Source of the DNA: Eubacteriales bacterium
Lineage (GTDB): Bacteria > Bacillota > Clostridia > Oscillospirales > CAG-272
Direction of reading: 5' to 3'
Assembly: GCA_045531965.1 (NCBI GenBank)
Contig: JAZSFA010000078.1
Span: 1,091 to 65,090 of the forward strand
Length of the DNA stretch: 64,000 nt
In this document: positions 4,606 through 18,617 of the stretch, piece by piece
Numbering within the stretch: the first letter of the stretch is position 1
How the letters are laid out: each line of letters starts with the position of its first letter
Made by a program: the position numbers and the translations under genes
Notes under the pieces: model-generated
Told to the model about the DNA's origin: nothing
Databases searched by the model: none
Seen by the model: the letters and a program-made list of their open reading frames with translations, nothing else

Positions 4606-5241
4606 TCAACGAAATCTCAAAGCCTCATCCGGCAACACGCCCTCGATCACCGCCGCCTCAACGAGACTCCGATCCACGCATAGAGGCTTGATCAAATGCC
4701 AATCCATCTCCCCGTTCAGGATCTTGTCCAGAATGCGGCACCGCGAATCAAAGTCCATGAAGGGAAGCAGATGCTCTAGCATCTCGGGGGTGATCCCCGC
4801 GCAGTCGGTCTCCGCCAGAAGCCGCTGTGTCCCCTCGTCCGATAGATACACGGCAATATCCATCAGACGTGAAATGTTAATCCCCTGCACCGCCAGATTC
4901 ACCGTTAGCTTCTCCACCGCGCTGGGCTTCAGTAAGGGAGCCAAGGCAGCCACATCCTCGGGTAGAGCCTTGTGGGATGTCTCTTTCCCGTGGGCAAGAT
5001 CGTGCAGAATCGCCGCTTCCCCCACCGTGGGAGAGCCCGCGCAGATCAGCTCGTCCACCGATACGCCGAACACCTCCGCCATGGTCACCAGGATGGTCAC
5101 GTCGGGGAAGGAATCTCCCGTCTCGTACTTGGATACCGCCTGCCGCGTGACGTTCAGCCGATCTCCCAGATCGGATTGGGTCATGTCGGCGTTCTTGCGA
5201 AGCTGCGCGAGCTTCAGACCGAAGGTTTGGGTGTTAAACAT
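4606..5241 (-). CDS. XRE-family helix-turn-helix transcriptional regulator with an uncharacterised C-terminal domain
   Basis: FGLKLAQLRKNADMTQSDLGDRLNVTRQAVSKYETGDSFPD is a classic Cro/C1 HTH. Start taken at ATG 5241, preceded by AAGGAGG (the ORF track extends to 5301). Confidence 0.85.
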   Translation of the reverse strand: MFNTQTFGLKLAQLRKNADMTQSDLGDRLNVTRQAVSKYETGDSFPDVTILVTMAEVFGVSVDELICAGSPTVGEAAILHDLAHGKETSHKALPEDVAALAPLLKPSAVEKLTVNLAVQGINISRLMDIAVYLSDEGTQRLLAETDCAGITPEMLEHLLPFMDFDSRCRILDKILNGEMDWHLIKPLCVDRSLVEAAVIEGVLPDEALRFR

Positions 5242-5349
5242 ATGGATGCCTCCTTGCGGATGTTTTGATTTCTGTCTCCATTGTACCCTAAGCTCCCCCA
5301 AATGTCAAGCAACGGTTGTTTGCGTGTCGGAGCATCCGTTAATTTTCAG

Positions 5350-5391
5350 AAAAAAAGTCATGCCGCGCAGAACGGTATGACTCTTTTTTTG
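5350..5391 (-). terminator. Intrinsic terminator downstream of the TepA-like gene
   Basis: AGTCATGCCG/CGGTATGACT stem flanked by an A7 run and a T7 run. Confidence 0.8.
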
Positions 5392-5423
5392 GGGATTTTT
5401 CAGTTTCTTTCCTTTGTATAATG

Positions 5424-6158
5424 CTATGGCTCTTCCCTGCCTTTATTTTGTCGGACTTGATCGATCATGCTCCGCAACGCCAGCAAAGCACTGTCCAGCC
5501 CCCCCACCTCATCGATGAGTCCGCAAGCAACTGCTTCCCTGCCATCCAATACCGTCCCTACGTCGGTGGCAAGCTGATCGGGGCGCATCATAAATTCCCG
5601 AAGACGTGCCACCGAGATACGGCTATGGTCGCTGATAAACTGCAGAATACGGTTTTGCATATCCTCAAAGTATCGGTAGGTTTGAGGAGACCCCACCACC
5701 GTTCCGTTGATGCGGACGGGATGAACCATCATGGTGGCTGAGGGAACAATGAAGGATTTTTGTCCCGCCACCGCCAGGGGTACTCCGATGGAGTGTCCCC
5801 CGCCCAACACCAAGGTCACTGTGGGCTTACGCAAAGAAGAGATCAGTTCCGCTAACGCCAGCCCCGCCTCCACGTCACCTCCCATGGTGTTCAATACGAC
5901 CAGAAGACCGTCAATGTCGTCGTTTTCCTCAATGGAGACAAGAAGGGGGATCAATTGCTCATATTTGGTGGTCTTCTGTCCCTCGGGTGCCACGTAATGC
6001 CCCTCGATCTGACCGATGATGGAGATGCAGTAAATGGTCTCACGGTTGTTCGACGCTACCACCGAGGAGGATTTTTCAATGTTTTCAAGCTCTTGAGCGG
6101 TAGTCTTGTTTTTCTTTTCGGATTCGGTGGTCGGAAGGTCGTTTTCTTTTTCAGACAT
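5424..6158 (-). CDS. ClpP-fold serine protease-like protein (TepA/translocation-enhancing protein family)
   Basis: LNTMGGDVEAGLALAELI, GGGHSIGVPLAVAG and MMVHPV resemble ClpP blocks. Start at ATG 6158 after AAGGAG (the ORF track extends to 6206). Confidence 0.75.
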   Translation of the reverse strand: MSEKENDLPTTESEKKNKTTAQELENIEKSSSVVASNNRETIYCISIIGQIEGHYVAPEGQKTTKYEQLIPLLVSIEENDDIDGLLVVLNTMGGDVEAGLALAELISSLRKPTVTLVLGGGHSIGVPLAVAGQKSFIVPSATMMVHPVRINGTVVGSPQTYRYFEDMQNRILQFISDHSRISVARLREFMMRPDQLATDVGTVLDGREAVACGLIDEVGGLDSALLALRSMIDQVRQNKGREEP

Positions 6159-6270
6159 CTGGGAGACTCCTTTTGATAAATATGACGTAATGAATTTCTG
6201 CGTCAAAACTTTTTATCATTATGCCCAAAAAGATATTCAATATACCGAATGAAATATTTCAAAAAAATAC

Positions 6271-6299
6271 TTTACAATTTCAAAACAATATGCTATAAT
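6271..6299 (+). promoter_or_regulatory. Sigma-A type promoter for pduL
   Basis: TTTACA, 17-nt spacer, TGcTATAAT. Confidence 0.65.
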
Positions 6300-6363
6300 A
6301 ACTAAGAATGCGAATTTAAACCATTTATGTCGCAAAACCAAACATAAGAGAGGATTACAAGCT

Positions 6364-6939
6364 ATGGAAAACAAGATTCTCGTAGAAACCTCCGCAAGAC
6401 ACGTCCATCTTACCAAGGAAGCCGTGGCAGCCCTGTACGGCGAAGGCGCCGAGCTGATCGTTAAGAAGATGCTCAGCCAGCCCGGTCAGTTCGCTACTGC
6501 CAACGAAAAGCTGAAGCTCGTCGGTCCTAAGGGTGAAATGATGGTCAGTGTCCTGGGTCCCACTCGACCTGCCAATCAGGTAGAGCTGTCCTTCACCGAC
6601 GCTCGCGCACTCGGCCTCAAGGCGGTTCCCGTTCGTGAGAGCGGCGACGTGAGTGGTACCCCCGGCATCAAGTTGGTCGGTCCCGCCGGTGAGATCGATA
6701 TTGACGAAGGTTGCATCATCGCCAAGCGTCACATCCACATGACTCCCGCAGACGCAGAGGGTCTTGGCGTTGTAAACGGCGAAGTGGTTAAGGTGTTGGT
6801 CAAGTCCGACAGAACCACCATTTTTGACGACGTGGTCGTTCGTGTCAGTCCCAGCTATGCACTGGCTATGCACATCGACACCGATGAATGCAACGCCGCT
6901 GCTGCTTTCGGAGAGATCTACGGTGAAATCGTAAAGTAA
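6364..6939 (+). CDS. pduL: Phosphate propanoyltransferase / phosphotransacylase PduL
   Basis: 191 aa. ETSARHVHL and AKRHIHMTP are the duplicated PduL His motifs. SD GAGAGGA upstream. Confidence 0.9.
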   Translation: MENKILVETSARHVHLTKEAVAALYGEGAELIVKKMLSQPGQFATANEKLKLVGPKGEMMVSVLGPTRPANQVELSFTDARALGLKAVPVRESGDVSGTPGIKLVGPAGEIDIDEGCIIAKRHIHMTPADAEGLGVVNGEVVKVLVKSDRTTIFDDVVVRVSPSYALAMHIDTDECNAAAAFGEIYGEIVK

Positions 6940-6979
6940 TCCCCCAAAAAATACATTTGAAAAGGCACCGACAATCGCT

Positions 6980-7606
6980 ATGAAAATTTTATTTCAGGGA
7001 GACAGCGTGACCGATGCCGGGAGAGACCGAAGTAACCCCAATGATATGGGTGAGGGCTACCCGAAATACGCGTCGGCCATGATCCAGGATTCCTTCCCCG
7101 ACACAGAGTTTGAATTTTACAACTTAGGCATCAGCGGAAACAGAACCGAGCATCTCGTGGCTCGTTTGGAAACCGATTTCATCGAGATCCAACCCGATAT
7201 CCTTTCCATTATGATCGGCGTTAACGACGTATGGCATCATTATGACTTCGAGCATATCGAAACGACCGACGAGTATTTTGAAGCCAATCTCCGTAAGATT
7301 TTGTCCGAGGTCAGAGAAAAGACCCCCGCCAAGATCCTGCTCGTTCAACCCTTCCTGTTGGATGTGGCTGACAAAGCGCACATGCGCCCCGAGCTGGAAC
7401 GAAAGCAGGTCATTTTTGCCCGCCTTGCAGAGGAGTACGCCGACGCGTATCTCCCCATGGATGAGATCTTCCATACCGAGACAGAGGAAGAGCCTACTTA
7501 TTACGCCACTGACGGCGTACACCCAACACCCGACGGCGCGTGCTATATCGGAGAAGCTTATCTCCGTGCCGTCACCCCCCTCATCGAATCCCTCGTTGAG
7601 GATTGA
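6980..7606 (+). CDS. SGNH/GDSL-family hydrolase
   Basis: Block I FQGDSVTDAG, block III IMIGVNDV, block V TDGVHPT. Confidence 0.85.
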   Translation: MKILFQGDSVTDAGRDRSNPNDMGEGYPKYASAMIQDSFPDTEFEFYNLGISGNRTEHLVARLETDFIEIQPDILSIMIGVNDVWHHYDFEHIETTDEYFEANLRKILSEVREKTPAKILLVQPFLLDVADKAHMRPELERKQVIFARLAEEYADAYLPMDEIFHTETEEEPTYYATDGVHPTPDGACYIGEAYLRAVTPLIESLVED

Positions 7607-9450: not shown

Positions 9451-9483
9451 GAACACCGTCCCCTGGGGACGGTGTTCTTTTTG
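9451..9483 (+). terminator. Intrinsic terminator after the GGGtGRT gene
   Basis: GAACACCGTCCCC/GGGGACGGTGTTC stem followed by TTTTT. Confidence 0.9.
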
Positions 9484-9506: not shown

Positions 9507-9535
9507 TTGACGAATAATTATCTTCATGTTATAAT
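9507..9535 (+). promoter_or_regulatory. Sigma-A type promoter
   Basis: TTGACG, 17-nt spacer, TGtTATAAT. Confidence 0.65.
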
Positions 9536-9585: not shown

Positions 9586-10170
9586 ATGTCAAAAATGTGC
9601 CCGCATTGCGGTGTGAAATACCAAAACAGCGCAACCAAATGCCTCATATGCAAAATTGAGCTTCCGGAAAACCACGGCCATAAGAAAATGAAGAAGCTGG
9701 TCTTCTCGGGAATTATTGGGATCGTGTTGGTCGGAATCGCCATCACTCTGGTATCGATGCTTACAGGTCCCAAAGCGGCAGTCCGAAGGATCGTGGAAGG
9801 CTTCAAGCAAAATGATCCCCAAGCAATCATGGCCATGCTCCCGGATTTCGTTCTGGAATCGGATAAGATCGACCGCCGGGAACTTGAGCTCGAAATGACG
9901 ACTGATTCTCTAACTCTGTCAAAATACATATTCTCCTACAACATTGAAGAGGTAAAGGATCCCACATCTCAGGAATGCGAGAAACTCATGGAGAACTTCC
10001 GCTACATTGCCGGAGAGGACTTTGATGATCGCGAAATCAAAGATATCAAGATCATTTGGGTCAATTATAAGGGCGATATTCCCGGCTTCTGGCCTTCCCA
10101 TGCCACGCGGTTCACAATGATCAAGTACCAAGGACGTTGGTACTGGTGGCCAGAAACTGTCAACAGATAA
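9586..10170 (+). CDS. Zinc-ribbon, single-pass membrane protein with an extracytoplasmic domain
   Basis: N-terminal CPHCG...CLIC zinc ribbon, then a TM helix (LVFSGIIGIVLVGIAITLVSML), then a soluble domain of about 130 aa. SD AAAGGAGAG. Confidence 0.7.
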   Translation: MSKMCPHCGVKYQNSATKCLICKIELPENHGHKKMKKLVFSGIIGIVLVGIAITLVSMLTGPKAAVRRIVEGFKQNDPQAIMAMLPDFVLESDKIDRRELELEMTTDSLTLSKYIFSYNIEEVKDPTSQECEKLMENFRYIAGEDFDDREIKDIKIIWVNYKGDIPGFWPSHATRFTMIKYQGRWYWWPETVNR

Positions 10171-10264: not shown

Positions 10265-10293
10265 TTGACATTCCATCGAAAAAATGATAGAAT
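10265..10293 (+). promoter_or_regulatory. Sigma-A type promoter for the large TasA-like gene
   Basis: TTGACA, 17-nt spacer, TGaTAGAAT. Confidence 0.65.
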
Positions 10294-10337
10294 AAAATAT
10301 CTATATTATGTCATTATGTCGGGAAAGGAGAGCATAT

Positions 10338-11834
10338 ATGAAAACTTTAAAACGGATTAGTGCTTGTATAGGCATCTTCTTTATGTTTTGCTTTGTCTGT
10401 ATCGGTTACGCCGCCATTTCTGACAACCTTCTGATCACCGGTTCGGCGGAAACGGATATACCCTCGGGTTTGTTCATCGTAGACGTTTCGGTTGAAAGTG
10501 AGTCGTATGTTGATAAAAACACCGTGGAGTTTATTCCTTATACAACAACCGTCAAATCCACCATTAGCAGATCCAACCGTTATTACGAGGGCAAGGTTAC
10601 CTACAAGATCACCGTACTCAATAACACAAAGCTGACTTATTCGTACAGAGATATCTATTTCCAAGCGAATTTGAGCGGCTATAACGGAAACCAATATGTT
10701 TCAGGTTCCAACGGTTCTCGAAACATTGGCGTTGTGTGTGAATTGAAAGATGCCGACACAGCAGATAAGATCGTCAAACCCGGCGATACCCTCGAATTTG
10801 AGGTGACTTATACCGTTGGTACTAACAGAGACAGAAATACCAACTGGGCCACCATGATTAACTACCAGTTTGGTATCAACGTGGACGGAGAGAGAGAAGC
10901 CCTTGACGTCATTGAATCCAAGTTTTTGAATATCCTGAATACCCAGTCGACTTATGAACAACTGATTGATGTATTGGATAATAAGTTTGACGGTTATCAG
11001 GAATGGACCTCCAACTACATCGGAAACGTGCAGAGCTCCACCAGCGAAGACTCCGTTGCGGTCAACACCCTGTTTGCAGGTCAGTTGCAGATCACTGTCG
11101 GACAGGAAGATATGGATGCCACGGTACTGATCAAGCATGAAAATCTTGACGGAAACACCATGACAGGTGACGATTATACAGCCGTAAATTCGAGCAACGG
11201 AGGCGTGTTCAACGGATATGGCTGCGAAATGACTCTGTATCTGACCATCGACCCGTTGGAGAGAGCGGGGTCGTATGTGCCGGTGTACGTGGCGGTATTC
11301 ACCTGTGATCGGGATGAAAACGGCAATATTGTGAGTGACTGGTACAGAATCGGTGATACCTACGCCGGTGAAGCCAACGTGGTTTCCTACGAAGGCGGCA
11401 ACGGAACGGGTTCCTTCGTCACGGACAACTGGATAGCCTACCGAGAGACCTACACCATGGTCGAGGGTTATTCCTACGATATCAACGGTGCCGTTTATCA
11501 ACTTGATGCGTATACCTACGATATCGCCGCAGGTGTCAACATTGAAAGCATCGTCATGGCGCATGACGACAGAGCCGTCAGCATTTTCCAAACGCTCCTT
11601 GACGACGCGAAAAGGATCATTGATAGCCGTGAATTTGCGGGTGTAGGTATTGATCTCGTGGAAGAAGTCTATAGCAGTCTTTCCCGCTATTATACGTTGG
11701 ACGAGAACGGCAATCCCATTGCCAACGCTAGCTTGACCCGAAGCCAGTTCTCACCGGTGATCTCAGATCTTTACTACGTTGTCAGTGAGACCTTGATGAA
11801 AATGGAAGCTCTAACTCAACAACAACAGTCATAA
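10338..11834 (+). CDS. Secreted protein with a SipW-class signal peptide: a TasA/camelysin-like N-terminal beta-rich domain plus a C-terminal extension of about 300 aa
   Basis: ATG 10338 after AAAGGAG. The N-terminus MKTLKR + hydrophobic helix + GYAAISDNLLITGSA shares a junction motif with 12191..12691 and resembles the TasA/TapA junction. Alternating beta-type sequence (KVTYKITVLNNTKLTYSY, KPGDTLEFEVTYTV). Confidence 0.65.
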   Translation: MKTLKRISACIGIFFMFCFVCIGYAAISDNLLITGSAETDIPSGLFIVDVSVESESYVDKNTVEFIPYTTTVKSTISRSNRYYEGKVTYKITVLNNTKLTYSYRDIYFQANLSGYNGNQYVSGSNGSRNIGVVCELKDADTADKIVKPGDTLEFEVTYTVGTNRDRNTNWATMINYQFGINVDGEREALDVIESKFLNILNTQSTYEQLIDVLDNKFDGYQEWTSNYIGNVQSSTSEDSVAVNTLFAGQLQITVGQEDMDATVLIKHENLDGNTMTGDDYTAVNSSNGGVFNGYGCEMTLYLTIDPLERAGSYVPVYVAVFTCDRDENGNIVSDWYRIGDTYAGEANVVSYEGGNGTGSFVTDNWIAYRETYTMVEGYSYDINGAVYQLDAYTYDIAAGVNIESIVMAHDDRAVSIFQTLLDDAKRIIDSREFAGVGIDLVEEVYSSLSRYYTLDENGNPIANASLTRSQFSPVISDLYYVVSETLMKMEALTQQQQS

Positions 11835-12042: not shown

Positions 12043-12071
12043 TTGAAAAATGCAATCATTGATGATATAAT
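12043..12071 (+). promoter_or_regulatory. Sigma-A type promoter for the small TasA-like gene and downstream operon, overlapped by an inverted repeat
   Basis: TTGAAA (12043-12048), 17-nt spacer, TGaTATAAT (12066-12071). A perfect 11-bp inverted repeat, ATTGCATTTTT (12018-12028) / AAAAATGCAAT (12046-12056), overlaps the -35. Confidence 0.6.
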
Positions 12072-12190
12072 ACATTTGAAAAAGACTTTATTTCAGTAAA
12101 GTTTTTCTTCTATTATGTATATCCCATAAAGCCTCAGGCTTTATTCGATATAAAATGCCCACAATTTTTTCTATTCAAAGGAGAACAACC

Positions 12191-12691
12191 ATGAAAAAAA
12201 GAAGATCAGTTGTGATCGCATTCCTGCTCATCGCCGCTTTGGTCATGGGTATCGGTTACGCCGCTTTGACCGACGTACTGGACATTACCGGTAGCGCCGA
12301 CATCAACCAGTCCGCCGCTGAAGATTCCTTCAACGACGATATTTTCTTCACTGCTGCCGTCGCTAATCAGACCGGCAACACTGCTTCTGTCAATGCTGAC
12401 AACAATGACAAGGCTTCCTTCACCGCAAACACCCTCAAGGGTAAGGATGACACCGCAACCTTCACCTTCACCATCAAGAACAACGGTGACCTGGATGCCA
12501 TGATTACCCCCAGCATCTCCAGCAACACTCAGCCCGAATACTTTGAGTTGAGCAGCGATTGGAATGGTCAGCCTACCGAACTGAAGGCCGGTCAGGAAGT
12601 TACTTACACTGTTACTGTTAAGTTGCTCCAGACCCCCACTGCAACCCTCGGCGGCTCCTTCATCATTGAGTTGACTGCTGTTGCAGAATAA
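12191..12691 (+). CDS. Small secreted TasA/camelysin-like protein (candidate major fibre subunit) with a SipW-class signal peptide
   Basis: ATG 12191 after AAAGGAG. MKKRRS + hydrophobic helix + GIGYAALTDVLDITGSA. About 140 aa mature, beta-rich, no Cys (TATFTFTIKNNGDLDAMI, KAGQEVTYTVTVKL). Confidence 0.7.
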   Translation: MKKRRSVVIAFLLIAALVMGIGYAALTDVLDITGSADINQSAAEDSFNDDIFFTAAVANQTGNTASVNADNNDKASFTANTLKGKDDTATFTFTIKNNGDLDAMITPSISSNTQPEYFELSSDWNGQPTELKAGQEVTYTVTVKLLQTPTATLGGSFIIELTAVAE

Positions 12692-12769: not shown

Positions 12770-13894
12770 ATGAACCGCGACGTAAAACGAGTCATCATTT
12801 TATCAGCGATCATTTGCGTTCTCCTGCTTGGTTCGCTGCTTATCCCCGTAGAGCAGAGTGGGATACTGGGTGCTTGCCTTTTGGTTCCCGCGGCTCTCGT
12901 GGTGTTCTTCACCGTCAAAAAAAGACGGATCCCCTCCATCAATAAATACCAGGTTCTGCTGATCGTGGGCGTCTGCGGAATGCTCTACATCATGCTCTAC
13001 TATCTCCTGGGTCTCCATTTCGGTATGGGTCGGAGATCGCAGAGCATGAGTTGGGGATCGTTTTTGAGCGGTGTTTTGCCGATCATTTTGAGTATCATAG
13101 CGTCCGAAATCATAAGAGTGGTACTACTTTCTCAAAAAATCCGTTTCGCTTCCGTTATGTCCTATATCATCTGCGTTGCCACAGATCTTTTGATGGCAGG
13201 CGGTCTCATAGGCGTTAAGGGATTTAACGATTTTATGGATCTCGTAGGACTGGCAGGACTGTCGGCTGTCACAAGCCATATTCTATACCACTACTTAGCT
13301 AAACGATACGGGGTTCTCCCCGGATTGCTTCTTCGCTTGATGCTTGCTCTTTATTCCATCATCATCCCCGTAGTGCCGTTGGTTCCCGATGCTCTCAAGG
13401 CTATGGGCGGTCTTCTCTTCCCTCTGTTTGTCTACTTGTTTGTGGATATGCTGTATGAGAAAAAGAAAATCACGCACAAAAAACCCGGAGCGCTGTCATA
13501 TATATGCGGTGGCGTGGTGGTGGTTCTTATGATTTCGATCGTTATGATCGTGTCCTGTCAATTCCGGATTGGCGCGCTCGTCATTGGCTCCGGTAGTATG
13601 ACCGGAGAACTAAACGTAGGAGATGCCGCTGTTTATGAGCGGTACGACGGACAGGTAATTAACGAAGGAGACGTTATCGTCTTCCGCTCGGGTAATACCC
13701 GAGTGATCCATCGGGTCGTAGATATTAACAGTGTCAACGGTGAGTTGCGTTACGTAACTCGCGGCGATGCTAATGAAGATAACGATATAGGTTACAGAAC
13801 CCACGCTGATATTATTGGCGTTGTGCATTTCAAAGTGGCATATATCGGATATCCGTCCATATGGATCAGAGATATTTTCAAAAATAATTCATAG
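12770..13894 (+). CDS. Fusion protein: N-terminal polytopic membrane domain of about 8 TM helices plus a C-terminal ER/archaeal-type signal peptidase I (SipW-like, S26B)
   Basis: The C-terminal 110 aa carry IGSGSMTGELNVGDAAVYE (catalytic Ser box), GDVIVFRSGNTRVIHRVVD (His box) and VTRGDANEDND, which parallels B. subtilis SipW. Residues 1-235 are hydrophobic helices of no recognised family. SD AAAGGAGGA. Confidence 0.8.
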   Translation: MNRDVKRVIILSAIICVLLLGSLLIPVEQSGILGACLLVPAALVVFFTVKKRRIPSINKYQVLLIVGVCGMLYIMLYYLLGLHFGMGRRSQSMSWGSFLSGVLPIILSIIASEIIRVVLLSQKIRFASVMSYIICVATDLLMAGGLIGVKGFNDFMDLVGLAGLSAVTSHILYHYLAKRYGVLPGLLLRLMLALYSIIIPVVPLVPDALKAMGGLLFPLFVYLFVDMLYEKKKITHKKPGALSYICGGVVVVLMISIVMIVSCQFRIGALVIGSGSMTGELNVGDAAVYERYDGQVINEGDVIVFRSGNTRVIHRVVDINSVNGELRYVTRGDANEDNDIGYRTHADIIGVVHFKVAYIGYPSIWIRDIFKNNS

Positions 13895-13909
13895 AAGGGA
13901 GGTAGTCAT

Positions 13910-15733
<1,824 letters not shown>

Positions 15734-15856: not shown

Positions 15857-15885
15857 TTGACACTAAAGCTCATTTATGGTATCAT
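15857..15885 (+). promoter_or_regulatory. Sigma-A type promoter for the DUF4091 lipoprotein gene
   Basis: TTGACA, 17-nt spacer, TGgTATCAT. Confidence 0.6.
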
Positions 15886-15917
15886 TATAGAATAGTATAT
15901 CACACTTGGAGGTCCCC

Positions 15918-18617
15918 ATGAAAAAGCATCTAAGCTTGTTCTTATCTCTTTTCTGCGTGTTGCTTTTGATCCTTGTATCCTGCGGGAAAAATGATCCCAC
16001 CGAGACCCAGCCCGCAGAGACTTCTCAACCGACCGATGAAGTCACAACGGCACCGACAGTCAGCACCGATCCTGAGCCCGACACCGCTCCCGTGACCAAC
16101 GAAGTGACTGTCGACAGCGAGAATCCCACCGAAGAACTCACTGAGGTGCTGACAGACACCTCCACCGAAGCGCTCACCACACCTGTCACCGAGTCAGAGA
16201 CCGACACGGAGCCTCAGCCTCCCGCCAACGTCAACGGCGACTGCGACAACGTATTTTGGAGTGAAACACGGAAAACTGTCGGTCAGGTAAGACTTGACTC
16301 AGTCAAGCACGAGATTAAACAATCAGAATATGCCAAAGCCGTCAGCAAGTCCGGGAACTGGAACGTAACCATCTCCCAAAATTCCGGTATGCTCCAGCTG
16401 TACGGTTGGATTGGTTTTAGTTTTGATCAGTTCGAACTGGGCTGGCGCATTGGCACAGATAGCGAAGCAACGTATATAACCGATCATGCCGCCATCGTCA
16501 CTCGCGAGGCTGCGGTTTTGCAAGCGGCAAAGAAGGAAGGATTCACCAATGCTACAGGCTTTAGCTATCTTCTCAACCTGAATGCGTTTAACAGTGGCGA
16601 CGAGGTGCATCTGTTCATCAAGGATACGTCCACCAATACCGTCTACTGCTTCTGCGAACTGACCATTAACATAAACACCGTGTCTGCCGATCTGTCCACC
16701 GACGCCTTGAAGGAAAAGTACGAGCTGGGCTACGGTTCCGATATGGATATGTCCGCCTATGATCCCATTCCTGACAAGGAGACCGTAGTTGCTCCCGACG
16801 ATGATCCCACCGTCTCCCTGTGGTTTGACCATATCACCGAGAAGGTCACCCGGTATGACACCTCCGGTAAGGATTCCGGCAAGGACAGTTACACCATTCA
16901 GATGGGCAAGAATGAGATTGAGGGTTGCCAGTTCTTCCTCTACGCTCCTACCAACAAGAAGATCCACATCAACATTTCGGACTTTACCAACGACAAAGGC
17001 GAGACCCTCCCCACCCAGTTGGGTGTGGAGTTTTACATGGAGGACGGCTACGTCACCCACAACGGCTTCCCCGCTTCCCTTGTCTACCCCGATGCCGTGA
17101 TTCCCTACGATTCCTATATCGCCTATTCCAGCAACACTGAAAGTGGTCGCTACGGTATGGACGCCAACAGTAAGATCGATTACGGTCCCTACGTGCTGAT
17201 CGGTCCCTTCTCGGGCTCCGACTGGAATCATGAGAAGTACCCCTTCCGTGACTCTGTTCGCGGCTTCGTGGTAGAGGCCGAGACCGCCAAGGACACTACC
17301 CCCGGCGCGTACAAGGCTACCATCGAGATCCTGGACGCCGACACGGGCAAGTGCATCAAGATGGCCAACGTCTATACCTACGTCTACGACGTGACTCTCT
17401 CCGACGAGACCGCCATGAATACCGCCTTTGGTCTGTGGGATATCGTCAGCGTCTATTATCAGCAGTACAACGAGAACCCCGACCGCCACCGCTACAGCGA
17501 CGTAGAGATCACCAAAGCCGTGGCTGAGTTCTTCCTCAAGAACCGCATCACCCTGACGGGCAGCATCACCTATTTCAACATGATGGGTACTGATTGGTTC
17601 AAGAACCCCCGTGTGACTTCTCTGCGCGTGCTAACCAAGGATCAGTACGACTCCATCAAGGGCGATCCCGTCCTTGCCAGAAAAATGTTCTACTACGGAC
17701 AAGACGAGCCGGGTGTTGCCCGTGGCTGGCGTCCCATCACCTGGCCCGATGGCACCTCCGAGAATATCTACGACAATACGGGTCTCTTGAGTGTCCTTGC
17801 CATCGCAAGAGAAGCTGACCAGCTGAAGAACGTCTGGGGCTGGGAGGATTACCGCCTGCTCGTTCCCTTCGAGCGTAACATTGACTTCAAGTCCTTCAAC
17901 TACAACAGTGTGGACAAAAACACCGCCTTCCCCGCATGGTACAACGATTACGCCGTCAACGGTGAGCGGGATGCCATTGAGTACCTTTCTAAACGAGGTG
18001 TGAGTATTTGGGTTCCCCACTTGTTCAGCTACACCCCCAGGGATCTGAAAAAGACCGCAGGCGCGCAGTTTATCCAGTCAGTTTCCATCGACTCCGCCTT
18101 CGGTGAGTTCTCCGACCGATTGCAGGGCTTTGTGGAGGCAGGCGGAGAACGCTGGAGTTACGTATCCTGCGAGCCCAAGTACACAAGCCCCTATCAGAAC
18201 ATCCTTCTGTTCAACGACGGCACCGAGGGACGCACCATGTTTTGGACGAATTATCTCAACGACGTCACGGGCTTCCTCTACTGGCACGTTTCCTACTATG
18301 ATGCCGCGGGCAACAACACCTACCAGATGCGCAACCCCGTCTCCAAGACGGGCCCCGGTGACGGTATCCTGGTCTATCCCGGTTCTGCCTACGGTCAGCT
18401 GGATCCCATTCCCTCCATCCGCCTGACCTATATGCGTGACGGCATCGAGGATTATCAGATGCTCACCATGCTGGAGGAAGTAAAGGGCGCAGAGTATACC
18501 GACGAGCTGGTCAGCCATATCACCACAAGCACCTTGAGCTACACCAGAGACGACGACGTGGTCTATAATGTCCACTCCTATCTCTTGAGAGTGCTTGAAG
18601 AGGCTTCCAAATCATAA
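15918..18617 (+). CDS. Large lipoprotein with a Thr/Pro/Glu-rich linker and a DUF4091 (GH123-like) glycoside-hydrolase-like C-terminal region
   Basis: ATG 15918 after GGAGG. Lipobox LILVSC|GK. About 90 aa of low-complexity T/P/E linker. C-terminal YMRDGIEDYQML and GDGILVYPG are typical of DUF4091 (from memory). Confidence 0.65.
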   Translation: MKKHLSLFLSLFCVLLLILVSCGKNDPTETQPAETSQPTDEVTTAPTVSTDPEPDTAPVTNEVTVDSENPTEELTEVLTDTSTEALTTPVTESETDTEPQPPANVNGDCDNVFWSETRKTVGQVRLDSVKHEIKQSEYAKAVSKSGNWNVTISQNSGMLQLYGWIGFSFDQFELGWRIGTDSEATYITDHAAIVTREAAVLQAAKKEGFTNATGFSYLLNLNAFNSGDEVHLFIKDTSTNTVYCFCELTININTVSADLSTDALKEKYELGYGSDMDMSAYDPIPDKETVVAPDDDPTVSLWFDHITEKVTRYDTSGKDSGKDSYTIQMGKNEIEGCQFFLYAPTNKKIHINISDFTNDKGETLPTQLGVEFYMEDGYVTHNGFPASLVYPDAVIPYDSYIAYSSNTESGRYGMDANSKIDYGPYVLIGPFSGSDWNHEKYPFRDSVRGFVVEAETAKDTTPGAYKATIEILDADTGKCIKMANVYTYVYDVTLSDETAMNTAFGLWDIVSVYYQQYNENPDRHRYSDVEITKAVAEFFLKNRITLTGSITYFNMMGTDWFKNPRVTSLRVLTKDQYDSIKGDPVLARKMFYYGQDEPGVARGWRPITWPDGTSENIYDNTGLLSVLAIAREADQLKNVWGWEDYRLLVPFERNIDFKSFNYNSVDKNTAFPAWYNDYAVNGERDAIEYLSKRGVSIWVPHLFSYTPRDLKKTAGAQFIQSVSIDSAFGEFSDRLQGFVEAGGERWSYVSCEPKYTSPYQNILLFNDGTEGRTMFWTNYLNDVTGFLYWHVSYYDAAGNNTYQMRNPVSKTGPGDGILVYPGSAYGQLDPIPSIRLTYMRDGIEDYQMLTMLEEVKGAEYTDELVSHITTSTLSYTRDDDVVYNVHSYLLRVLEEASKS

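Follow-up and report, generated by a model that had tools for sequence, protein, structure and literature searches.

The gene described here lies in a stretch of 64,000 nucleotides (nt) from an Eubacteriales bacterium of the CAG-272 lineage (assembly GCA_045531965.1, contig JAZSFA010000078.1, positions 1,091-65,090), and this whole stretch is referred to as the window throughout. At positions 12770-13894 of its forward strand, an open reading frame (ORF) of 374 amino acids (aa) begins with an ATG that is preceded by GGAGG at a distance of about 8 nt and encodes a membrane domain of eight transmembrane (TM) helices, an anchor helix and a signal peptidase domain of the S26B family. The fusion of the eight-helix domain to the peptidase is real, conserved and common. 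With a probability of roughly one half, we read its product as the dedicated signal peptidase of a TasA/AbpX-type donor-strand fibre operon in an uncultured Oscillospiraceae bacterium of the gut, in which the eight helices would serve as a built-in scaffold for docking and positioning, a mechanism that we infer from the observations below.

A signal peptidase of the archaeal type

A sequence-only reading had described the ORF as a SipW-like peptidase, and profile searches agree with this assignment: Residues 242-363 match the NCBIfam model TIGR02228 for archaeal-type signal peptidase I with 84.3 bits (cut-off 51.85), and Pfam Peptidase_S26 is matched with 26.7 bits (cut-off 22.9). The catalytic domain (residues 263-374; 13556-13894, forward strand) carries Ser276-Met, with the serine codon at 13595-13597, His314-Arg, with the histidine codon at 13709-13711, and the motif GDANEDND with Asp333 and Asp339 at 13763-13786, all of which were verified in the translation. 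Over 124 full-length relatives, the set in which residue conservation was counted throughout, S276 and H314 are each conserved at 99%, D333 at 98% and D339 at 100%. Going by SipW and Sec11, we take Ser276 and His314, perhaps together with an Asp, to be the catalytic arrangement of S26B enzymes, in which His replaces the bacterial Lys. As judged from its sequence, the protein is an archaeal/endoplasmic reticulum (ER)-type, SipW-like S26B signal peptidase with intact catalytic residues. Foldseek searches with an AlphaFold2 model of the full-length protein (mean predicted local distance difference test score, pLDDT, of 73) found matches only to the peptidase domain, which matched SipA and SpsB, and to Tudor-like beta structures, while a plasmid collection held relatives of the catalytic domain only, mostly haloarchaeal signal peptidases.

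The match to TIGR02228 covers model positions 6-130 of 158 and leaves 11 residues of the protein beyond it, so that the peptidase lacks the C-terminal part of the model, presumably the part that forms a TM helix in SipW-type enzymes. The SipW equivalog NF046067 scores 44.4 bits, below its cut-off of 190, and this score, the length of 374 aa, the nine TM helices and the missing C-terminal helix together mean that the protein is not SipW proper.

Eight helices in front of the usual anchor

The layout that had been read by eye, with about eight N-terminal helices, a ninth helix as peptidase anchor and then the catalytic domain, is reproduced by AlphaFold2. Models of the full-length protein and of the N-terminal domain alone (residues 1-240; 12770-13489, forward strand) agree on helices at residues 3-22, 30-48, 59-84, 95-120, 125-142, 152-180, 183-198 and 207-229, and the domain-alone model, built on a 36-sequence alignment, reaches a pLDDT of 91.1 and a predicted TM-score (pTM) of 0.87. 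Helix 8 is followed by a lysine-rich loop, a cytoplasmic linker of 11 residues that joins the bundle to a ninth helix (residues 241-262; 13490-13555, forward strand), and the beta-rich catalytic domain comes next. The ninth helix corresponds to the usual N-terminal anchor of such peptidases; hydropathy peaks at residues 245-263, and the match to TIGR02228 starts at residue 242. Clusters of Lys and Arg read from the sequence occupy the N-terminus and alternate loops. Such a distribution agrees with nine spans, a cytoplasmic N-terminus and an external C-terminus, and would thus place the peptidase domain outside the cell. The catalytic domain is accordingly predicted to sit on the outer (trans) side of the membrane. 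The model of the domain also shows two short beta-strands (residues 86-88 and 201-203) on its outer face, where they flank the conserved Gly81/Gly85 and Pro200.

The fusion is intact and widespread

An exhaustive profile search over 1.84 billion cluster representatives (clusters at 50% identity) returned 1,206 matches at E <= 0.001, including 724 at E <= 1e-10. The lengths of relatives peak sharply at 370-384 aa, and of 29 proteins obtained by word-indexed search with residues 1-240, the complete-looking ones all measure 370-382 aa. Among the best 150 of the 1,206, 98 measure 355-384 aa and none is longer, so that no other architecture occurs in this set; the shorter ones spread evenly over 142-351 aa and therefore look like fragments. 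When one genome per species was scanned, relatives appeared in 324 genomes, and each of the best 80 contains a single tblastn segment that covers 86-100% of the query at 39-85% identity and in most cases starts at residue 1, with an Oscillospiraceae metagenome-assembled genome as the closest (85% identity). All of these 80 genomes are metagenome-assembled or from uncultured organisms, and nearly all are labelled Clostridia, Eubacteriales or Oscillospiraceae, next to single Christensenellaceae, Lachnospiraceae and 'Bacilli' labels; where a source is named, it is animal gut or faeces, mostly of ruminants. The public sequencing runs that contain the window's sequence are DNA metagenomes only, and in two independent runs contigs cross the domain junction (nt 13,423-13,645 and 13,286-13,944) without any insertion or deletion.

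One lineage, represented by the related loci L085-L087 and seen on four contigs from at least three Joint Genome Institute (JGI) samples, recurrently shows an eight-TM ORF of 252 aa followed by an overlapping peptidase ORF of 138 aa that has a TTG start and keeps the anchor helix. The split falls exactly at the linker (L085 4690-4760; likewise in L086 and L087), where one base is lost in a AAAAGAAAAG run. With one base restored, the domain would run on into the downstream frame with its typical lysine-rich linker, KKRIALQKNSK, and anchor helix. The split in this lineage could be a sequencing error, a pseudogene or a case of slippage-prone expression. That the fusion is itself an artefact, a frameshift or misassembly that joined two genes, had been named as a way in which the sequence-only reading might fail, and the two overlapping ORFs of this lineage point that way, but they go back to the loss of a single base; with single segments in the best 80 genomes and independent assemblies of the window's own sequence free of indels, this explanation is refuted for the window and deserves practically no weight.

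The sequence-only reading had also asked whether the domain occurs as a stand-alone gene next to TasA-like genes. TasA-like genes do adjoin the fusion, but the best 150 relatives and the short matches that were inspected include no genuine stand-alone copy of the domain, the short matches being fragments or products of the one-nucleotide frameshift. Those of 240-275 aa fall into 90% clusters that also hold members of 373-376 aa or have ragged lengths, and are on these grounds taken as fragments.

A probable fibre operon with a fixed-length signal in its putative substrates

Directly upstream of the fusion gene and on the same strand lies a gene for a small protein of 166 aa (12191-12691), a putative major fibre subunit with an N-terminal signal (MKKRR...GIGYA, then ALTDVLDITGSA after the predicted cut) and a putative beta-sandwich behind it. 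Its 594 homologues, typically 166-175 aa long, cover only the shorter form, or 93% of a longer ORF from 12155, so that the internal ATG at 12191 (MKKRRS...) and not 12155 is the true start; in Pfam it has weak DUF7507/DUF11 matches. Downstream of the fusion follows a DUF5305 membrane protein of 607 aa (13910-15733, forward strand; Pfam DUF5305, 39.6 bits against 29), a putative accessory subunit of the peptidase. A putative second substrate is encoded at 10308-11834 (forward strand), a large secreted protein of 508 aa that was recognised by syntenic alignment (65% identity to the orthologue of locus L001), has CIGYA followed by AISDNLLITGSA at its N-terminus and may be a minor, tip or adhesin subunit. 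This large subunit matches no Pfam or NCBIfam family and has no C-terminal hydrophobic segment; it lies upstream of the fusion in the window but downstream of DUF5305 in most related loci.

A strong promoter-like site (TTGAAA-17-TATAAT with TG; 12043-12071, forward strand; a pattern match only, from a consensus scan) stands 5' of the small-subunit gene, and the large-subunit gene has a promoter-like site at 10265-10293. In the short gaps between small subunit, peptidase and DUF5305, the pattern scan found no terminator-like site, the few low-scoring matches lying inside coding sequence, which makes it likely that these three genes form one operon. The order small subunit, fused peptidase, DUF5305 and large subunit recurs across 85 loci, in 82 of which DUF5305 stands directly 3' of the peptidase, and 72 full-length peptidase genes have a small subunit at most 400 nt upstream.

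In both subunits of the window, the signal ends in (C/G)IGYA and continues as A-(L/I)-(T/S)-D-x-L-x-I-T-G-S-A, and 59 large proteins with the signal motif were found in related loci. The N-terminus of the small subunits reads M-K-(K/N)-R-(R/K), a hydrophobic stretch and G-(I/V)-G-Y-A-A-L, and the spacing from Met to GIGYA is 19 residues in 65 of the 72. Conservation is concentrated in this region, with a mean top-residue frequency of 0.62 in the first 40 alignment columns against 0.39 in the rest. Behind the predicted cut after GYA follows A-L-T-D4-V-L-D-I-T-G with an acidic residue at mature position 4. Neither subunit was listed as a match to TIGR04088, the NCBIfam model of the SipW-cognate signal, at E <= 0.1, a threshold at which short models are easily filtered out.

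A known fibre with which these proteins can be compared is AbpX, a member of the TasA superfamily that polymerises by calcium-assisted donor-strand complementation and has reported homologues in Bacillota (bioRxiv 10.64898/2026.01.04.697558). The end of the signal in the AbpX precursor (...GLTYA, then QWSETLSLSATISTG) is collinear with that found here (...GIGYA, then ALTDVLDITGSADI), the acidic residue at mature position 4 included, and hhalign of a profile of 40 small subunits against AbpX gave a probability of 92.7% (E 4e-7) with the signal included. A PDB search with the small subunits matched no TasA structure. By its organisation, N-terminal signal and donor strand, as far as these can be read from sequence, the locus is of the AbpX/TasA kind.

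Independent assemblies (runs X1 and X2) differ from the window in the mature part of the small subunit, with 28-42 substitutions over 12100-12532 and no contig over 12548-12675, and are nearly identical to it in the peptidase gene. A variable mature part beside a conserved peptidase fits a rapidly varying, surface-exposed subunit.

Fold and conserved residues of the eight-helix domain

That the N-terminal domain belongs to no known family was upheld when the window protein and 14 relatives were searched against Pfam, and equally in profile searches of NCBIfam and the PDB, all of which returned noise only (DUF2809, TFIID_NTD2 and a peptide transporter at E 0.7). At the level of sequence, the domain is thus outside every family described in these three databases.

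Its most conserved feature is Glu113-Ile-Ile-Arg116 in helix 4 (13106-13117, forward strand), part of the SEIIR (residues 112-116) to which the sequence-only reading had drawn attention: Glu113 is conserved at 100% and Arg116 at 98%. Residue 139 is acidic in 97% of relatives, Arg189 is kept in 86%, and Gly81, Gly85, Pro104, Gly181, Pro184, Pro200 and Pro218, which shape the helices, in 84-98%. The second motif singled out by that reading, SHILYH, fared less well; the window protein does have His at position 170, but 83% of relatives have Asn there. Position 174 is polar (His in 40%, Asn in 30%). Judged by their positions in the helices, Glu113, Arg116, Asn170 and Arg189 lie towards the cytoplasmic leaflet and Asp139 near the outer face. 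Among the 124 relatives, the domain has no conserved His or Cys and therefore offers no active site of the CPBP or exosortase type that would depend on them. An exosortase/archaeosortase identity was considered and rejected, given no NCBIfam match and no conserved Cys or His.

The rejection of the CPBP (CAAX protease) family in the sequence-only reading stands as far as sequence is concerned. Of the motifs EExxxR, FxxxH and HxxxN/D, only [ST]-E113-x-x-R116 has a conserved counterpart; neither the window protein nor 14 family members match PF02517 even at E <= 1, and no CPBP gene occurs in the 64-kb window. For a profile comparison, the family of a PF02517 protein from a related locus (L057) was collected and 13 members were aligned, and hhalign of the domain profile against this alignment gave a probability of 0.3%; since these 13 sequences represent one narrow CPBP subfamily and their profile fails to match even Rce1 in the PDB, this negative is weak. 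Membership in CPBP is not supported by sequence.

Structure comparison, however, qualifies this rejection. Foldseek of the domain-alone model against the PDB gave no significant match, and its one coherent superposition was on the CAAX protease Rce1 (4cad; TM-score 0.48 by query and 0.46-0.47 by target, probability 0.66-0.69, E 1.1). A second, weaker one covers 224 residues of 7tm3 chain 6 from a multipass translocon (TM-score 0.34), which is probably TMEM147, an APH-1 relative, and nearly all remaining PDB matches listed have TM-scores of 0.12-0.22; in a viral library, one protein of 261 aa was matched with a TM-score of 0.48 and a probability of 1.0. Rce1 has eight TM helices with both ends in the cytoplasm, the same topology as the domain studied here, and Glu113...Arg116 on helix 4 would be placed like CPBP motif 1 (EExxxR), which in Rce1 likewise lies on helix 4. 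By its sequence, then, the domain appears to keep something like CPBP motif 1 and to lack the histidines that define the family. A distant common fold with the CPBP/APH-1 group is possible but unproven, as the superposition of the model on Rce1 is not significant.

Comparison with known signal peptidases

The closest described counterparts in organisation are signal peptidases I with ten TM helices that accompany AbpX in bacteria, Bacillota among them, and in archaea and are partnered by DUF5305 proteins (Sleutel et al., bioRxiv 10.64898/2026.01.04.697558). DUF5305 was interpreted there as a putative accessory subunit of signal peptidase I that is sometimes fused to the peptidase and is reminiscent of the eukaryotic complex (bioRxiv 10.64898/2026.01.04.697558). 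Like these enzymes, the window protein is of TIGR02228 type, rich in extra TM helices and apparently dedicated, and its gene lies beside genes for putative fibre subunits of the TasA kind and DUF5305; unlike them, it has by our count nine TM helices, not ten. Polytopic dedicated signal peptidases with DUF5305 in TasA/AbpX-type fibre loci are thus already known from the 2026 preprint, which gives the ten-TM enzymes one sentence and mentions the extra helices without analysis, and because the class has been noted there, the window protein is most likely another member of a barely characterised kind (bioRxiv 10.64898/2026.01.04.697558). What our analysis adds is how large the family is, its range of hosts, the boundaries of the domains, the topology and the invariant Glu-x-x-Arg with the other conserved polar residues, as well as the absence of CPBP histidines in spite of a weak Rce1-like superposition, the fixed length of the substrate signal and the lack of stand-alone copies.

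SipW of the Bacillus subtilis tapA-sipW-tasA operon likewise has a Ser-His domain of ER/archaeal type, is dedicated to fibre subunits and shares an operon with its substrates. In contrast to the window protein, which has eight additional N-terminal helices and no C-terminal one, SipW is a protein of about 190 aa with a single TM helix at either end, and its partner is TapA where the window locus has DUF5305. The substrates on both sides have signals of the type G-x-(W/Y)-A, then A-x-x-D; SipW cuts B. subtilis TasA between ...GGGTWA and AFND..., a site close to GIGYA and ALTD.

Haloarcula hispanica cannot process its fimbrial subunit TafA without the signal peptidase TafD, and the DUF5305 protein TafG, encoded by the adjoining gene, has been proposed as the partner of TafD (PMC11821415). 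TafD therefore resembles the window protein as an archaeal-type peptidase dedicated to a donor-strand fibre subunit with a DUF5305 partner, but differs from it by having four TM helices and a second extracellular domain, no eight-TM N-terminal bundle and substrates of the Tat pathway (PMC11821415).

The eukaryotic signal peptidase complex, in which SEC11 associates with SPC12, SPC25 and SPC22-23, shares the S26B catalytic family. SEC11 works within a bundle of accessory TM helices that shapes the membrane around the signal peptide. These accessory helices belong to subunits of their own, in which no similarity to the eight-TM domain was detected, so that any likeness would be one of function only.

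Proposed mechanism and alternatives

The sequence-only reading had suggested that the attached domain might be a platform for substrate docking, export or polymerisation. In the reading that we favour, the S26B domain with Ser276, His314 and an Asp would cleave the small and large precursors after G-[IV]-G-Y-A, and the cut would free an N-terminal strand, ALTDVLDITG..., to act as donor strand in polymerisation. The eight-helix domain would be an obligatory built-in accessory module rather than a separate enzyme or transporter and would most likely fix the position of the catalytic domain on the membrane surface. Together with the anchor helix, it could form a docking site within the bilayer for the conserved signal peptide of fixed length, with the polar cluster of Glu113, Arg116, Asn170 and Arg189 in the cytoplasmic leaflet close to the n-region with its invariant MKKRR. 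DUF5305 would join as another accessory subunit, and the whole might be viewed, by analogy, as the prokaryotic equivalent of the signal peptidase complex that eukaryotes build from several subunits.

Several points weigh against this reading. SipW of B. subtilis processes a very similar signal without such a domain, so that help in docking is not obviously needed. An invariant Glu together with conserved Arg, Asp/Glu, Asn and Arg in the membrane exceeds what a passive scaffold usually shows and could mean catalysis or binding of ions or substrates, which is why our confidence in a purely passive scaffold is restrained. The connection to AbpX lies mainly in the signal and donor strand, as hhalign of the mature parts alone drops to 3%, and the ten-TM enzymes found with AbpX (e.g. 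WP_338249487.1) are, going by their description, no more than likely members of the same family.

An alternative that we would give perhaps one chance in a handful regards the eight helices not as an element of specificity but as a platform for assembly or anchoring that, once cleavage is done, would hold or chaperone the new donor strand or the base of the growing fibre at the membrane, possibly with DUF5305, and would replace chaperones or anchors of the TapA type. The four-gene module has no obvious TapA-type chaperone or anchor, as seen without a profile search for TapA, the large subunit of the window lacks a hydrophobic C-terminal segment, and the beta-strands 86-88 and 201-203 on the outer face could pair with an extended strand. 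Separate anchors are, moreover, often needed at bacterial abpX loci (bioRxiv 10.64898/2026.01.04.697558). Set against this, the most conserved residues point to the cytoplasmic leaflet and not to the outer face, and in vitro no platform in a membrane is needed for the polymerisation of AbpX, CanX and TasA (for AbpX: bioRxiv 10.64898/2026.01.04.697558).

The resemblance to Rce1 allows a bolder idea, which we hold to be improbable to about the same degree: The domain would be a new intramembrane module of CPBP/APH-1-like fold, and the enzyme would with it amount to a prokaryotic signal peptidase complex made of one chain. One version has the fixed-length signal measured and recognised through a thinned or polar membrane pocket at Glu113/Arg116; in another, the domain would be catalytically active and destroy the signal peptide after cleavage, which would unite a signal peptidase and a signal-peptide peptidase in one polypeptide. 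Non-catalytic members of the CPBP/APH-1 group scaffold other membrane enzymes, as APH-1 does in gamma-secretase and SpdC with SagB.

A related and somewhat less probable explanation makes the domain a second intramembrane hydrolase, a divergent glutamic protease of the CPBP/Rce1 kind that acts after the signal peptidase and might degrade the left-over signal peptide, again as a fused signal peptidase and signal-peptide peptidase, or cut the substrates a second time. It would fit the coherent structural neighbour (4cad), the weak match to what is probably TMEM147, the topology, which is that of Rce1, and the invariant Glu113 with Arg116 on helix 4, which resemble CPBP motif 1; Asn170-x-x-x-[His/Asn]174 is found equally deep in the membrane and is paired with CPBP motif 3 (HxxxN) in a non-significant hhalign segment. 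The superposition itself, however, has an E value of 1.1 and a TM-score below 0.5, hhalign against the one narrow PF02517 subfamily stays at 0.3%, and no member matches Pfam CPBP. Both catalytic histidines of CPBP also lack a conserved counterpart, and the spacing from Glu to Arg is off by one residue.

Hardly any weight falls to the idea that the domain transports or exports fibre subunits or a small molecule, for example the Ca2+ required in AbpX-type assembly, which is calcium dependent (bioRxiv 10.64898/2026.01.04.697558): Its bundle of membrane-spanning helices and the conserved acidic residues within it (Glu113 and Asp/Glu139) would suit a transporter or channel, but the known transporter family that might have undone the sequence-only reading did not turn up in Pfam, NCBIfam or the PDB, the subunits carry ordinary Sec-type signals, and the domain is never apart from the peptidase among its best 150 relatives.

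Implications

For the question of how SipW and other dedicated enzymes choose the fibre subunits that they cut, and how the cut is linked to polymerisation by donor strands, the fusion family provides a natural case in which an accessory membrane part is joined to the enzyme. The conserved substrate signal of fixed length and, in the accessory domain, the invariant Glu and nearly invariant Arg offer handles for mutation. The family is abundant in Clostridia of ruminant and other animal guts, where it counts about 1,200 clusters (50% identity) and occurs in the genomes of 324 species; wherever the source of a relative names an organism, the genome is metagenome-assembled or uncultured. The fibres may matter for gut biofilms or for attachment to particles. 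Since the domain has no Pfam or NCBIfam model, defining one would improve the annotation of more than 1,000 proteins that are now just called 'signal peptidase I'. The importance of the family would rise if the domain turned out to be a catalytic or signal-measuring module.

Neighbouring genes

Within the DUF5305 gene, about 57 tandem copies of GAGCCC (15062-15418) encode a Pro-Glu repeat (PEPEPE..., with a few PK) that separates the DUF5305 part from a C-terminal domain and may be a cytoplasmic spacer of variable length; among related loci, the length of the DUF5305 protein varies between about 345 and 940 aa. Bacterial abpX loci often have two-component regulators at their flanks (bioRxiv 10.64898/2026.01.04.697558). 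At L001, the fibre operon is immediately preceded by genes (5123-7194) for a LytS-type histidine kinase (His_kinase/HATPase_c) and for a response regulator, and the fibre operon of the window has no adjoining regulator of this kind. Just upstream of the fibre genes, the window encodes a protein of 194 aa (9586-10170) that combines a zinc-ribbon at its N-terminus (CPHCG...C..C) with one TM helix and an extracytoplasmic domain and weakly matches zinc-ribbon and TcaA-like models. Upstream of its gene come a strong terminator (9451-9477) and a promoter-like site (9507-9535). Directly after the fibre operon and with a promoter-like site of its own (15857-15885), the window encodes a putative lipoprotein of 903 aa (15906-18617) with a linker rich in Thr, Pro and Glu and a match to the GH123 catalytic domain (6e-15).

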